Origin: a virus
Taxonomy: Duplodnaviria; Caudoviricetes
DNA: 64,000 nucleotides
Direction: 5' to 3' (one strand)
Virus record (IMG/VR): IMGVR_UViG_3300002092_001784
Coordinates: 32,001-96,000 of that record
In this document: in pieces, positions 13,007 to 17,739 of the stretch
How positions within the stretch are numbered: the first letter of the stretch is position 1
How the letters are laid out: each line of letters begins with the position of its first letter
Notes under the pieces: model-generated
What the model saw: only the letters and a program-made list of their open reading frames with translations
Databases searched by the model: none
What the model was told of the DNA's origin: nothing
Position numbers and translations under genes: made by a program

Positions 13007-13267
13007 ATGGTAACAGTAAAGAAATTTTCAGCAAGTTGGTGTGCCCCATGTAGGGTTTTAGCACCAATAATACAACAAGTAAAATCAGAAGTATCAGGTG
13101 TTCATTTTATGGATATTGATGTGGATGATAATCAAGAAATAACAGCAAAGTACGGAGTTCGTTCTGTACCTGTTGTTGTGATTGAAAAAGATGGAACTGA
13201 AGTTGCACGATTTGCAGGAGTTCAATCTAAATTGGCATACGTGAACGCAATTAATGCGGTTCTGTAA
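13007..13267 (+). CDS. trxA: thioredoxin
   Basis: FSASWCAPC active site, cis-Pro RSVP; start refined to ATG 13007. Confidence 0.92.
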   Translation: MVTVKKFSASWCAPCRVLAPIIQQVKSEVSGVHFMDIDVDDNQEITAKYGVRSVPVVVIEKDGTEVARFAGVQSKLAYVNAINAVL

Positions 13268-13289
13268 ACAAACTTAAAGGTTATACCAA

Positions 13290-13493
13290 ATGGGAGTGTT
13301 AAGAGGTGAGTCTCATCCGTCAGCAAAGTTGACGGATGAGCAGGTTTTGCAAATAAGAAAGTTATGGAATATGGGGCATCGAAACCTAAAAGTGATTGCC
13401 CGTAATAATCATGTATCGCCTGCAAATATTATGAAGATTATCCATTTCAAAACTTGGACACATCTAAATGAATTTTGGTCTGGAAGTTTATAA
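13290..13493 (+). CDS. small helix-turn-helix DNA-binding protein (NUMOD-like)
   Basis: RGESHPSAKLTDEQVLQIR motif typical of endonuclease-associated HTH domains. Confidence 0.6.
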   Translation: MGVLRGESHPSAKLTDEQVLQIRKLWNMGHRNLKVIARNNHVSPANIMKIIHFKTWTHLNEFWSGSL

Positions 13494-13508
13494 GTTATAA
13501 AAAATAAT

Positions 13509-13547
13509 ATGAGTTACAAAGGACAAATAAAATTAATGTTTTTGTAA
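13509..13547 (+). pseudogene. orphaned original 5' end of the MTase gene (MSYKGQIKLMFL*)
   Basis: 27/32 nt identical to 14190-14221 (MNYKGQIKLI). Confidence 0.7.
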
Positions 13548-13554
13548 TTTCCTT

Positions 13555-13562
13555 ATATTTAT
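13555..13562 (+). promoter_or_regulatory. ATATTTAT putative phage promoter box
   Basis: Upstream of the HNH gene. Confidence 0.5.
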
Positions 13563-13603
13563 TTATGAAACAGTTTATATACTTTTAATTTTATAAATAA
13601 TAT

Positions 13604-14227
13604 ATGGAAACCGATAAACGCAAATTGTACAATCAAAGCTGGGAAAACCTAAAACTAGGACCAATTGGTGCATCTGAAAAGGCTAAAATCAATGGTATAT
13701 ATAAAAATTGTTTGAATTGTAACAAAGAATTTAGAGTATCACATTCTACCAGCAAAAAGAAATTTTGTAGTAAAGAATGTAAAGCAATAGGTCAATCATC
13801 TGGATTAACTGCACCAATGAGGTATGGAACAGGTAGAACAGCCATTCAAAAAATTATAGCTAATAAATATAATAGATATGTTTCGAAAGATGGTAATATC
13901 GGAATAAGTCGAACTGATTTTATTAAACTGATAGAAAGTGGAGAATGTTATTATTGTGGGTCTACCGTAACTGAAACTTTAGGATTTGATAGAATAGATA
14001 ATACAAAAGGTCATATAATTGGTAATGTCCTTATTTGCTGTGAGTTGTGTAATACAACAAAAGGGCATCGCTATTCAGTCGAACAAATGAAACAGTTGGG
14101 AAATTTAATAAAAACATTTAATTTGGATGGCTGGAGAACAATGGGTGAGTTACAATTGACAAAAATGAAAAAAACAAACGAAACGTTATATGAATTACAA
14201 AGGACAGATAAAACTGATATTGGGTGA
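13604..14227 (+). mobile_element. free-standing HNH-type homing endonuclease gene
   Basis: N-terminal CxxC..FCSxxC zinc finger; CYYCG...GFDRIDN..GH..GNV..CC..CN HNH-like core; flanked by duplicated MTase starts. Confidence 0.8.
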
Positions 14228-15587
14228 TTGTTTAGATAAGCTAAAAGAATTAGATGACAATTCCGTAGATAGTATCGTTACAGACCCACCATATGGATTG
14301 TCAGCAGCCAAAAATAGTGGTAACTCTTCGAAAGGTGGCTTTATGGGAAAATTGTGGGATTATGATGTCCCAACACAGGCCATTTGGGAGGAATGTCTAC
14401 GTGTATTAAAACCCGGAGGTCACCTATTGGCATTTGCAGGTAGTAGAACTTATCACCGAATGGCAGTTAGAATTGAAGATGCTGGGTTTGAAATCCGAGA
14501 TCAGATAATGTGGATATATGGAAGTGGATTTCCTAAGTCTATGGATATATCAAAACAGATTGATAAAAAGGCAGGAGTAGAAAGAGAAGTTATTGGACAA
14601 AAAATTAGAGGAAGTGTTGATTTGGCAAAACAATCTGGATCAACCTACGCCGTAGCAGATGCTAACAAGAATAATAAAGCTATATTTGGATATGGTGTGG
14701 AAAATTTAACTAAACCCGCAACCGATGGCGCAAAGAAATGGGAAGGTTGGGGTACTGCTCTTAAACCGGCACACGAACCAATAGTAATGGCACGCAAACC
14801 GATAGAAGAAAATACTGTTGCTGATAATGTACTAAAGTACGGAACTGGTGGTATAAATATAGATGGGTGTCGTGTTGAAACTGATGATAAATTAGATGGT
14901 GGCGCTACAAATGGTTCTGTATTGGATATTGATGGATTTGACAGACCGTGGATGCATGATGATGAAAAGATGATTGAGTTTCAACAAAAAATGCAAGATA
15001 AGGTCGAACATGCACAGAATTTAGGTAGGTTTCCCGCTAATGTTATTTTGGATGATGTTGCGGGCGAAATAATGGATGAACAAAGTGGTGTTACAAAAAG
15101 TGGAAAAATAAAGGAAGATAAATCGGCATATGATGGAGAATCAACCACTGGATTTTTAAGAGGTGTTAGTAATAGTACCAATCAGCATGGAGATACCGGC
15201 GGAGCATCTCGATTCTTCTATTGCCCAAAAGTATCAAAATCCGAAAGAAACGAAGGATTGGGTGGATTTGAACTAACTTCGGTTGAACCAAAACAAAACT
15301 TTCATCCTACCGTGAAACCAACAGACCTAATGGCATATTTGATTAGATTAGTGACACAACGTGGTGGTATCGTTTTAGACCCATTTATGGGTAGTGGTAG
15401 TACTGGTAAGGCAGCGGTGCGTGAAGGTATGAATTTTATTGGAATTGAAATGGAGCAGGATTATTTTGAACTTGCTGAAGCTAGGATTGATTGGGAAACT
15501 GAAAATCCGATGAAACCGAATAAAAAGAAATCAAATCCATTACTACCAACACCAACAAATAACACAGTTGAAACCGATTATTGGTAA
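14190..15587 (+). CDS. DNA N4-cytosine/N6-adenine methyltransferase (beta class)
   Basis: DSIVTDPPY motif IV; HPTVKP; VLDPFMGSGSTG motif I. Confidence 0.92.
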   Translation: MNYKGQIKLILGDCLDKLKELDDNSVDSIVTDPPYGLSAAKNSGNSSKGGFMGKLWDYDVPTQAIWEECLRVLKPGGHLLAFAGSRTYHRMAVRIEDAGFEIRDQIMWIYGSGFPKSMDISKQIDKKAGVEREVIGQKIRGSVDLAKQSGSTYAVADANKNNKAIFGYGVENLTKPATDGAKKWEGWGTALKPAHEPIVMARKPIEENTVADNVLKYGTGGINIDGCRVETDDKLDGGATNGSVLDIDGFDRPWMHDDEKMIEFQQKMQDKVEHAQNLGRFPANVILDDVAGEIMDEQSGVTKSGKIKEDKSAYDGESTTGFLRGVSNSTNQHGDTGGASRFFYCPKVSKSERNEGLGGFELTSVEPKQNFHPTVKPTDLMAYLIRLVTQRGGIVLDPFMGSGSTGKAAVREGMNFIGIEMEQDYFELAEARIDWETENPMKPNKKKSNPLLPTPTNNTVETDYW

Positions 15588-15935: not shown

Positions 15936-16732
15936 GAGAAGATGGTAAGAATTATTGTGATGTTTCAAAAGTGTATATTGCTCCAATAGCCAAAAACATT
16001 GCCAAAGATATTATTGTACAAAAGCATTACACACATGCGTGGACAGCATGCCGATACGCATTGGGTATTTACTATAAAGCAGAAGATTCATATACTTTTG
16101 GTGGTGATAAATTGATAGGGTGTCTTATTTACGGATTTCCTGTTGGAGTTCAAGCAGCAACTTCGATTTGTGAAGGACTTAGTAAGGATAATGCATTAGA
16201 ATTAACCCGTTTATATTGTGATGATGGTTATGGCTCAAATATTGAATCATACGCAATCGGACAATCATTCAAATGGCTGAAAGAAAATGATAAAAACATC
16301 AAACTACTTTTATCATATGCAGATGCAGGACAAGAACATTTAGGTGGTATCTATCAGGCTACCAACTGGATATATCAGGGAACATCAGCAGATATAGCAT
16401 TAATGCCTAATTGGAGAATATCATTACACAATGACCCATATGATTGGATTCACAGTAGGACTGTATTCTCAATGTGGGGTAGTGGTAATTTAGACCACCT
16501 AAAAAGGGAGATCGGTAAGCAAGGGTATAAAGAGTTCTGGCGAAAAATGGAATCGCCTAAACACCGTTATATTCAAATACTTGCGCAAGATAAAAAAGAA
16601 AAGAAGGAATTGATGAAGAAACTCAAACACGAAATCAAACCTTATCCAAAGAGTACCGATGAATTTAATACTGAAATAGTTCATCATTTAACAACATACG
16701 AAGTGCCTGCTGGGGCTGAAAACTTTTGGTAA
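15932..16732 (+). CDS. Mom-like GNAT-fold DNA modification protein
   Basis: KHY...GFP...LELTRL...NIES..I..SF..LK...LLSYAD..Q.H.G.IYQATNWIYQG pattern. Confidence 0.75.
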   Translation: MREDGKNYCDVSKVYIAPIAKNIAKDIIVQKHYTHAWTACRYALGIYYKAEDSYTFGGDKLIGCLIYGFPVGVQAATSICEGLSKDNALELTRLYCDDGYGSNIESYAIGQSFKWLKENDKNIKLLLSYADAGQEHLGGIYQATNWIYQGTSADIALMPNWRISLHNDPYDWIHSRTVFSMWGSGNLDHLKREIGKQGYKEFWRKMESPKHRYIQILAQDKKEKKELMKKLKHEIKPYPKSTDEFNTEIVHHLTTYEVPAGAENFW

Positions 16733-16735
16733 CAT

Positions 16736-16791
16736 TTAACATTAACTTAACATTAAAAGTTTGGAAAGTCAAAATAAATGTTGTATATTTG
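16736..16791 (+). promoter_or_regulatory. extended promoter: TTAACA direct repeats plus TTTG-N20-TATATTTG
   Basis: TTAACATTAACTTAACATTAAAAGTTTGGAAAG; same layout as 53267, 57619 and 57729. Confidence 0.75.
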
Positions 16792-16812
16792 AATATAATC
16801 ATTGGGAGTTAT

Positions 16813-17739
16813 ATGGATCATGAATTTTTAAGATTAAGTTACGAAGAACAACAACGATATGTTAATATGGTGGCTGGCTATCTACTGAGCGCTATAAAGC
16901 GTAGTGCAAAGGGTGCAAAAGATAAAGATCGAACTTCTGGTCGAATGGATGCTTTGGCCATTACAATTACATTAGATGATTTAAAAAATAAATTATGGAA
17001 ATCAAATTGCTGTTGTTCCATTACTAGAAAGCCGTTTCCAATTGTAGATAGTTCTGTATATTTTTCGAAGTCCAAGGCACGTTCAATTGGAAACTGTGGG
17101 TTAGAATCTCCATCGGCAGACCGAATTGATTCGGCTGGATTTTATTCAAACGAAAATGTTCAGATAACATATAGGTCAATAAATCTATTAAAATCAACGT
17201 ATTCCAACGAAGAAACAAATACTCATTTATTAAAAATAAACACAAACCCTATGAACGTAAATCAGTTAAAAACAAACACAAATCGTATGAATCATCCAGA
17301 AGTTTTAAGAGAATTGGTATTAACTTTACCATTTGAACAACAAACCCAAGTCATAACTTTAATCGGTCGAAATGATATTGAAAACGCTGATTTTGTGAAT
17401 GGTATGAAAAAGTTGTTTGGTTATATTGGTGTGAATGTAAATCGAATTACTTCGAATGTAACCAATACACATATTAAAAAGTATAAATCAAAAGATGTAA
17501 AACCGATTGTCCGATATATGGAAGACAACTCCAAATTAATATCTAATATTGATAATTCTTATATTAATGTTTCCAAATTACATGTGGGGAAGAACGGTAC
17601 TGATAAATACAGATTGGCATCATCAAAAATAGGTAATCTGATTATGGAAAATAAACCACAACTATTCAAAATTTGGGCAACTAACAATAAATTTGATTTT
17701 TTAATCAAAAAATCAGATTATGATATTTTAATTGGCTGA
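16813..17739 (+). CDS. HNH-like nuclease domain protein with unknown C-terminal half
   Basis: CCSIT...SPSADRIDSAGFYSNENVQITYRSINLLK; start refined to ATG 16813 after the promoter. Confidence 0.6.
   Translation: MDHEFLRLSYEEQQRYVNMVAGYLLSAIKRSAKGAKDKDRTSGRMDALAITITLDDLKNKLWKSNCCCSITRKPFPIVDSSVYFSKSKARSIGNCGLESPSADRIDSAGFYSNENVQITYRSINLLKSTYSNEETNTHLLKINTNPMNVNQLKTNTNRMNHPEVLRELVLTLPFEQQTQVITLIGRNDIENADFVNGMKKLFGYIGVNVNRITSNVTNTHIKKYKSKDVKPIVRYMEDNSKLISNIDNSYINVSKLHVGKNGTDKYRLASSKIGNLIMENKPQLFKIWATNNKFDFLIKKSDYDILIG

Follow-up and report, generated by a model that had tools for sequence, protein, structure and literature searches.

A putative HNH homing-endonuclease cassette at the duplicated start of a phage DNA methyltransferase gene

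Why does the start of a phage DNA methyltransferase (MTase) gene stand twice in the DNA, with a complete HNH endonuclease gene between the two copies, and how does the MTase gene stay whole? The locus lies in a stretch of 64,000 nucleotides, hereafter the window, which covers bases 32001-96000 of the 266-kb virus record of a freshwater jumbo phage. Its surroundings are a replication and nucleotide-metabolism gene block with the order class II RNR, a 66-aa ORF, thioredoxin, a 67-aa ORF (13290-13493), the duplicated start with its HNH gene, the MTase, a 104-aa ORF and a Mom-like gene. The features on which the analysis turns are as follows.

13290-13493, plus strand: 67-aa gene, the conserved upstream flank, outside the cassette, with 96% nucleotide identity to the HNH-less relative L091
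13500-13547, plus strand: stub of the resident MTase start, comprising pre-ATG bases, the ATG at 13509, 10 2/3 MTase codons to 13540, a junction-derived FL and a stop at 13545-13547
13541-13603, plus strand: cassette leader, a T-run and then ATTTCCTTATATTTAT (13547-13562); promoter-like
13604-14227, plus strand: HNH endonuclease gene, 207 aa, intact, with a PacI-like beta-beta-alpha-metal core and an N-terminal CxxC...CxxxC zinc finger
14146-14163, plus strand: third, partial copy of the MTase start, within the HNH 3' end, with a 16/18 match to 13510-13527
14181-14221, plus strand: replacement MTase start, the functional copy, overlapping the HNH 3' end out of frame
14190-15587, plus strand: N6/N4 DNA MTase, 465 aa, intact (PF01555, E 4e-35, full profile length)
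14304-14339, plus strand: 36-nt in-frame insert (AAKNSGNSSKGG) directly after DPPYGLS, a candidate target-site disruptor accompanying the HNH gene

The duplicated start and its empty counterpart

The original prediction, made from this DNA alone, had read 13509-13540 and 14190-14221 as two versions of one MTase start, and the two stretches are indeed as it gave them, 27/32 identical. With the pre-ATG bases included, a repeat search extends the match to 41 nt at 80% identity (13500-13540 and 14181-14221). The second-best match of the 32-mer in the whole 64 kb is 22/32, and across 3000 Markov-simulated 1-kb upstream regions the maximum was 23/32, with 0/3000 reaching 24; because 27/32 stands against a background maximum of 22-23/32, a chance match is excluded. 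Nor is the stub-HNH-start structure an assembly artefact, because the same arrangement is found in independent assemblies and in a near-identical strain (L092), in which both start copies are unchanged. The identical MTase is carried by 15 contigs from several independent assemblies (ENA, Logan and JGI), with the HNH gene upstream wherever a contig extends that far, and the DNA of the window is present, as contigs, in five freshwater metagenome runs. A distant blastn search of the GenBank phage collection returned remote MTase matches only and no relative of the locus.

The upstream copy is translated as MSYKGQIKLMFL before its stop, whereas the MTase, which carries DPPY and FMGSGS motifs, is one 465-aa ORF; the host protein is unsplit and the stub encodes 12 residues only. 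The HNH ORF (13604-14227) and the MTase ORF (14190-15587) overlap by 38 nt in different frames. All five differences between stub and replacement are transitions, comprising S2N, a synonymous CAA>CAG, a synonymous TTA>CTG (two changes) and M10I.

The HNH gene had been predicted to sit within the MTase 5' coding end, with the upstream copy as the displaced start, and relatives lacking it were expected to show a single start joined directly to LGDC. Such empty alleles are found in two HNH-less relatives, L091 and L089, each with one start rather than both copies, so that the predicted insertion is borne out. L091 is syntenic with the window, with flanks 82-96% identical, and its single MTase start, MSYDKQIKLMLGDC, lies 15 nt past the stop of the 67-aa gene, at the exact position of the stub ATG; in the window and in L091 alike, the 67-aa gene stops 15 nt ahead of an MTase-type ATG. 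The MTase of L089 starts with MSYNGQIKLMLGNC. Read from the alignment, the stub matches the HNH-less starts at 30/32 (L089) and 27/32 (L091), and the functional copy at 25/32 and 24/32, respectively. The stub is closer than the functional copy to the empty alleles, and therefore the functional copy holds derived changes; judged against L089 and L091, it has the derived state at 4/5 differing sites. Homology of the stub to the empty alleles stops after ...ATGTT at 13540, and cassette sequence follows from there on. Comparison with these alleles shows that the upstream copy is the displaced ancestral start and stands where it originally stood.

The nearest empty allele is the one with flanks 82-96% identical; contig-level run data and IMG/VR yielded no near-identical HNH-less variant of the window phage, and among the contigs of the five freshwater metagenome runs holding the stretch no HNH-less joint was seen. 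An IMG/VR search for an intact allele with the stub-type start (MSY..QIKLMLG) gave no match. In one assembly the sequence breaks off at the left junction, within 13524-13578, an observation that is suggestive only. Against PHROGs, the 67-aa gene weakly matches the C-terminal portion of HNH endonucleases (E 2e-4). A 75-aa ORF upstream of the MTase in L089 was considered as an HNH remnant and rejected, as it resembles, by eye, the gene downstream of the MTase in the window.

The flanks and the MTase gene tell discordant histories. By flank identity, L091 (82-96%) is a much nearer relative of the window than L089 (46-72%), whereas MTase distances among window, L091 and L089 are nearly equal (75/69/73%). 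The MTase body (14561-15300) groups with HNH-less L091 and L089 at 13/19 informative sites, and therefore the insert arrived in a gene of that lineage. Around the 36-nt insert, four of 8 informative sites match the HNH-linked type and three the empty type, too few to map a donor tract. The replacement start of the window has a lineage-specific MxYKGQI extension, unlike the short start, MKLLLGDC, of other cassettes; because of this, either an unsampled phage from within this MTase lineage must have been the direct donor, or the start was re-copied from parental sequence. The third, partial start copy, whose 16/18 match was attained in 2/400 simulations, stands where all other HNH homologs have conserved EKSIN codons, and the last 16 HNH residues are unique to the window copy, arising from reading into the new MTase start.

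The HNH endonuclease and the mobility of its cassette

A profile of 12 HNH homologs matches PacI (3ldy) with E 3e-7, and a PHROG 1271 HNH endonuclease match was obtained with E 1.3e-16; a Pfam search with the HNH protein gave no HNH family at threshold, with sub-threshold zinc-finger matches only. The AF2 model reaches pLDDT 86-91 over residues 81-150, where strands 126-130 and 142-146 are followed by a helix, and a Foldseek search with this model returned PacI as the top match (E 5.5e-5), followed by the Gme HNH nickase. Invariant among the homologs are C115, C118, C146, C149, D129, R130, H137, N141 and N150. By sequence and modelled fold, the protein is a PacI-like member of the HNH (beta-beta-alpha-metal) endonuclease superfamily and a predicted nuclease. 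PacI (PDB 3ldy) gives the best profile and fold match of the core, including the LGxDRxD...N...C.xCN..K pattern; however, identity is about 21%, the HNH protein possesses, in addition, a zinc finger at the N-terminus and a helical region at the C-terminus, and its context is a mobile cassette rather than a stable restriction-modification pair.

The cassette opens with a conserved leader that includes a ATATTTAT box at 13555-13562 and is kept at the left end of the HNH cassette in L004, L093, L096, L100, L102-L107, L111 and L117. The 16-mer ATTTCCTTATATTTAT is unique in the window, while a shorter TATATTTAT box with an upstream T-run recurs ahead of six other plus-strand genes; because of this recurrence, the leader looks like the promoter type used by these phages.

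The HNH gene is single-copy in the 266-kb genome, and in IMG/VR a homolog was found at 1/80 related MTase loci, with 79/80 lacking it. Homologs 57-60% identical stand directly ahead of this MTase family behind three different upstream genes, namely DNA polymerase (L004, L113), DnaB (L093, L096, L111, L117) and the 67-aa gene (window), and every context has HNH-less counterparts: L091 for the 67-aa gene, L006, L001, L020 and L038 for L004, and L029 and L030, at 86-93% nucleotide identity, for L096. Between L096 and empty L029, the flanks are about 90% and the MTase 3' part 93-100% identical while the first ~540 nt of the MTase diverge, a pattern resembling a co-conversion tract. For the window, co-conversion is hinted at by the discordant MTase distances and the shared 36-nt insert, with too few informative substitutions near the insert to map a tract.

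Several copies are degenerate or lost. The otherwise identical strain L092 has lost 72 nt of the HNH gene and acquired a nonsense codon in it; of the HNH gene of L114, only the final ~70 nt survive; the first codons of the L116 MTase match the HNH V-M-S-E codons at 12/12 nt, a scar of loss that has become an N-terminal extension; and L100 retains the HNH gene and a 75-nt MTase stub with no MTase downstream. An apparent 201-aa HNH variant (L086) is not a real allele, being a scaffold gap of Ns, and long tblastn spans at several MTase loci, considered as interruptions, proved to be tandem MTase genes. Three marks of a free-standing homing endonuclease gene, namely presence/absence polymorphism at the locus, the same target in unrelated contexts and degenerate or lost copies, are found here, and distribution and decay fit the life cycle of a homing endonuclease gene. 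The proposal that the MTase is kept whole with neither intron nor intein also holds: a group I intron scan of 13200-14500 against Rfam (E<=1) found nothing, a stop at 13545 closes the stub frame, and the HNH gene and the MTase are read in different frames.

Variable left junctions and a linked insert

Independent remnants of the resident start, differing in length, are found at the left ends of the cassettes in L096, L093, L102, L104, L111, L117 and L100; the remnants read from individual loci, including two with none, are listed here.

L096: resident MTase start remnant ATGAAATTATTA
L111: resident MTase start remnant ATGAAACTAATATG
L102: all 24 nt of the resident MTase start, through GDC
L104: about 23 nt of the resident MTase start
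L117: the ATG of the resident MTase start only
L100: 25 codons of the resident MTase start, ending just before DPPY
L004 and L113: nothing of the resident MTase start

Stub lengths by lineage are thus 0, 3, ~13, ~24, 32 and 75 nt. In every listed locus, the same leader (T-run and ATTTCCTTATATTTAT) comes next after the remnant, and the right end is constant in the other cassettes, where the HNH stop overlaps the MTase ATG. This variability does not bear out the precise homing into a site that had been proposed. The companion proposal, that the recoded start destroys the cleavage site, is likewise unsupported: the stub of L111 is 13/13 identical to its new start, the T/C differences between stub and replacement in L104 run opposite to those in the window, and occupied L004 is identical to empty L001 over the first 24 nt of the start, and therefore that stretch alone cannot be the target. 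The same three loci led us to reject the Leu-codon T>C change as a shared immunity mutation. Divergence between donor and recipient is the better reading of the five differences in the window.

A second feature distinguishes HNH-linked alleles. The 36-nt insert of the window, 12 codons free of stops, is absent from the syntenic empty L091 and L089 and has 75-83% identity with the inserts found in other HNH-linked alleles. In a set of 61 distinct MTase 5' alleles, 6/7 HNH-linked and 0/54 HNH-less ones contain it, an association with 1e-7 in Fisher's test, ignoring shared ancestry. Five more insert-bearing MTases, picked blind to context, turned out to have an HNH gene (L111, L113, L117), its remnant (L114) or its scar (L116). 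The linked insert is hence a better candidate than the recoded start for target disruption.

More distant HNH homologs, of 44-50% identity (L106-L109, L118, L123), precede MTases whose frame is broken right after the Gly codon of DPPYG; the break reads TAY GGT TGA, and the MTase resumes directly in a different frame. When IMG/VR was scanned for DPPYG immediately before TGA, 21 matches were obtained, all in MTase context and from ~8 families, and DPPYG followed by TAA or TAG lay in MTase context in 8/12 matches; the control, DPPYGL followed by TGA, gave 11 matches, 0 in MTase. Most stop-bearing families have a GGN codon within 2-13 nt in the continuing frame, where a Gly-to-Gly hop would restore the family consensus, e.g., DPPYG-LAFMGK in L121. 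L144 and L147 have a second stop inside the gap, and in L144 the hop would give DPPYG-IEFMGK. In a protein tree, the insert type tracks the HNH lineage.

It is possible, though somewhat short of probable, that the 36-nt insert serves as the immunity device of the cassette, such that the HNH protein would cut the uninterrupted DPPYG(LS)/FMGK site of rival alleles and the cassette would spread with a site-breaking spacer. By the same tentative reading, the spacer of this clade would be in frame and translated. The stop-bearing spacers that distant relatives carry at the same codon measure 2-16 nt and would be expressible only by recoding, as in Gly-to-Gly ribosome hops, or as a split enzyme. If true, the window would hold a simple in-frame equivalent of the gap in T4 gene 60, and ordinary insertions and bypass elements would be linked in one evolving family.

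Origin of the arrangement and its relation to known systems

Taken together, the comparisons make it likely that the resident MTase gene was invaded, in this phage lineage, by a free-standing cassette coding for an HNH homing endonuclease. Besides the HNH gene, the cassette would comprise a promoter-like leader of its own and an MTase 5' end taken from a donor, with the 36-nt in-frame insert in it. The nuclease is predicted to break HNH-less MTase alleles in a conserved 5' region, most likely at the DPPYG(LS)/FMGK coding site, and the break may then be repaired from a cassette-bearing phage in co-infection. The right side would be repaired via homology within the MTase; on the left side, with little or no shared homology, an illegitimate join could form by microhomology at the T-run, after variable resection or later deletion. 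A join within the first codons of the recipient would leave a stub of the old start, and the MTase start of the cassette, overlapping the HNH stop region, would keep the gene whole. The ancestral start in place, the presence/absence polymorphism, the mobility between contexts, the HNH decay and the insert linkage are shown by the allele comparisons above, and from these we infer nuclease activity, the cut site, the repair pathway and insert-conferred immunity. One-sided, microhomology-mediated repair is proposed because the left joins vary while the right side is homologous, and such illegitimate double-strand-break repair is documented for T4 homing (reviewed in PMC2988022). Later shortening of a longer stub would yield the same picture of variable junctions.

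Precise homing between MTase codons 10 and 11, with the recoded start removing the cleavage site, would account for the left junction of the window (after AAATTAATGTT), which is equivalent to that of L096 in the DnaB context (after AAATTATTA, continuing into the T-run), for a junction in L111 only about one nt further on (AAACTAATATG), and for the T>C in the first Leu codon that the replacement starts of the window, L096 and L102 share relative to their own stubs. The stubs of 0, 3, ~24 and 75 nt in other lineages and the starts of L111, L104 and L004 described above nevertheless make this reading unlikely, and it is the other linked feature, the 36-nt insert, that tracks the HNH gene. A chance match, or a local duplication (by slippage in replication or by unequal crossing-over) that has nothing to do with the HNH gene, could be imagined in AT-rich, low-complexity sequence where short repeats are common; yet the excess of the match over background, the placement of the stub exactly at the start position of the empty alleles and the recurrence of the stub-cassette-start layout in unrelated genome contexts render it extremely improbable.

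The two genes might instead be a cooperating pair, i.e., a PacI-type restriction-modification or phage-competition module in which the insert-bearing MTase is the cognate protective methylase and the duplicated start an incidental scar. The homology of the HNH protein to a restriction endonuclease, the tight translational overlap of HNH and MTase genes (ATGA or 38 nt) and the linkage of the HNH gene to one MTase variant with an insert beside the catalytic loop would suit such a pair. However, most MTases of the family have no HNH gene (79/80 related loci), an intact MTase outlasts a decaying HNH gene (L092, L114, L116), the HNH gene persists in L100 without a downstream MTase, and distant HNH relatives are linked to MTases with the frame broken at the same site; an obligate type II pairing is not what the loci display, and we regard cooperation as improbable, a shade more so than precise homing.

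The putative homing-endonuclease cassette has its closest parallel, by layout, in the mobA/gene 60 cassette of phage T4 (bioRxiv 10.1101/2022.08.31.505936 and work cited therein). In both, an HNH gene lies within coding sequence with no intron or intein; a diverged version of the displaced segment comes with the element (homR is 67-81% identical to the parental segment, here 27/32); the nuclease ORF and the new N-terminus overlap in different frames (by 8-32 nt in MobA elements and by 38 nt here); the target gene holds, slightly farther downstream, a linked short insert, which in T4 blocks the nuclease (bioRxiv 10.1101/2022.08.31.505936); the nuclease decays or is lost once inserted; and independent insertions have closely related empty alleles. 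Unlike in T4, the insertion here is at the extreme 5' end and leaves the host protein unsplit, with a 12-codon stub only; the parental segment survives instead of being deleted; the linked insert, of 12 codons, keeps the frame and requires no ribosomal bypass; and the target is a DNA methyltransferase, not a topoisomerase. Of the mobA/gene 60 hallmarks, nuclease, replacement segment and linked insert are thus present, whereas host split and a coding gap with bypass are absent; stop-bearing inserts are found solely in more distant cassette relatives, outside the window.

Fungal mitochondrial mORFs likewise come with a foreign end for the invaded gene, whose native end persists as a relic, as in atp6 of Allomyces macrogynus and atp6, atp9, cox2 and nad3 of Glomus (PMC3630166). 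As here, the endonuclease ORF travels with a replacement terminus, the native terminus stays nearby as an unexpressed duplicate, the gene becomes a hybrid, and the two copies diverge far more in DNA than in protein; in contrast, the fungal elements replace 3' ends, encode LAGLIDADG or GIY-YIG enzymes and reside in mitochondria, whereas this one replaces a 5' end with its start codon, encodes an HNH enzyme and resides in a phage. The free-standing seg and mob endonucleases of T-even phages, for which intronless homing, co-conversion and distal cut sites are described (PMC2988022), resemble the cassette in their intergenic or gene-boundary position by the target gene and their sporadic distribution; co-conversion of flanking target sequence and one-sided illegitimate repair as a route to new sites are probable further points in common. 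However, classical seg/mob genes lie cleanly between genes, whereas here the left junction is inside the target CDS and the start is duplicated, and seven free-standing T4 endonucleases are promoter-less, whereas a conserved promoter-like leader is present here.

The locus clearly illustrates, in a phage, a trick already described for T4 and for the mitochondria of fungi, and it extends the logic of mobA/gene 60 and of the fungal mORFs to the 5' end of a widespread phage methyltransferase. It offers natural before and after alleles of a homing endonuclease that enters a coding gene without intron or intein, the gene working because its front end is brought along, and the sloppy left joins record each invasion as a stub of its own length. 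For annotation, short duplicated gene starts beside nuclease genes may be read as invasion scars, and some MTase N-terminal extensions (e.g., MSEV...) as leftovers of lost nucleases. The DPPYG(LS)/FMGK site is a directly testable candidate for both target and immunity element, and bears on why T4 gene 60 has an untranslated gap.

Scars and remnants at the cassette site

Two related loci, L116:1990-2030 and L114:2400-2500, are scars of HNH loss. At the former, the 5' end of the N6/N4 DNA methyltransferase (MTase) gene consists of the HNH V-M-S-E codons (12/12 nt), giving the protein an MSEV N-terminal extension, and at the latter the last ~70 nt, upstream of the MTase, are the sole part of the HNH gene left. 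In a further related locus, L100, the MTase itself is lost: a 75-nt MTase stub (L100:1351-1425; 25 codons, the last one just short of the DPPY motif) is followed by the HNH cassette and then by an unrelated 155-aa gene.

Within the 3' end of the HNH gene, window 14146-14163 holds a third partial copy of the MTase start (16/18), which stands in place of the EKSIN codons, conserved across all HNH homologs. Gene conversion could have produced this copy, or it could be the trace of an older junction.

Assemblies of two public freshwater metagenome runs break around the HNH gene, that of X4 at window 13524-13578, which is the left cassette junction, and that of X3 at window 13824-13843, near the site of the 72-nt HNH gene deletion in the near-identical strain L092. 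The breaks hint that strains differ in the vicinity of the HNH gene.

Interrupted and tandem MTase genes

Two or three tandem genes of the window MTase family are frequent in relatives (L005-L008, L011-L014, L022-L023 and others). At L102:1120-1995, the MTase adjoining an HNH cassette is also interrupted in frame, between MWIYG and SGFPKS, by an intein-like insert with CLSEDTE as its first residues and FITGN|S as its last; a canonical HNH ORF (1223-1921) lies within the middle of this insert in a different reading frame.

Many phage MTases from IMG/VR and metagenome loci (L106:2470-2540, L107:1580-1640, L109 and L118-L150) carry a stop codon immediately 3' of the Gly codon of DPPYG, and the MTase sequence carries on either at once in another frame or in frame past a second stop. 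These interruptions are 2-16-nt inserts, often with Gly codons on both sides. A control pattern with the stop shifted one codon beyond the DPPYG site gave 0 MTase matches. Distant homologs of the window HNH protein sit upstream of some of the interrupted MTases.

Other endonuclease-like ORFs and a promoter-like box

A second endonuclease-like ORF (window 16726-17739; PHROG endonuclease, E 6e-8; DRID-type motif) separates the Mom-like gene from the gene that follows it, and has no counterpart in the corresponding region of L093, an HNH-bearing locus in a DnaB context. This ORF may represent a further homing endonuclease of the free-standing type. A 67-aa ORF (window 13290-13493) shows weak PHROG likeness (E 2e-4) to HNH endonucleases, in their C-terminal DNA-binding part, with 96% conservation of the ORF in L091, a syntenic HNH-less relative.

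The TATATTTAT box, usually with a T-run 5' of it, lies upstream of six plus-strand genes.

Positions of the box in the window
2201, 6013, 13554, 29742, 33806, 50125: TATATTTAT box, preceding plus-strand genes

One such box is carried by the HNH cassette, and the box likely represents a phage promoter type.
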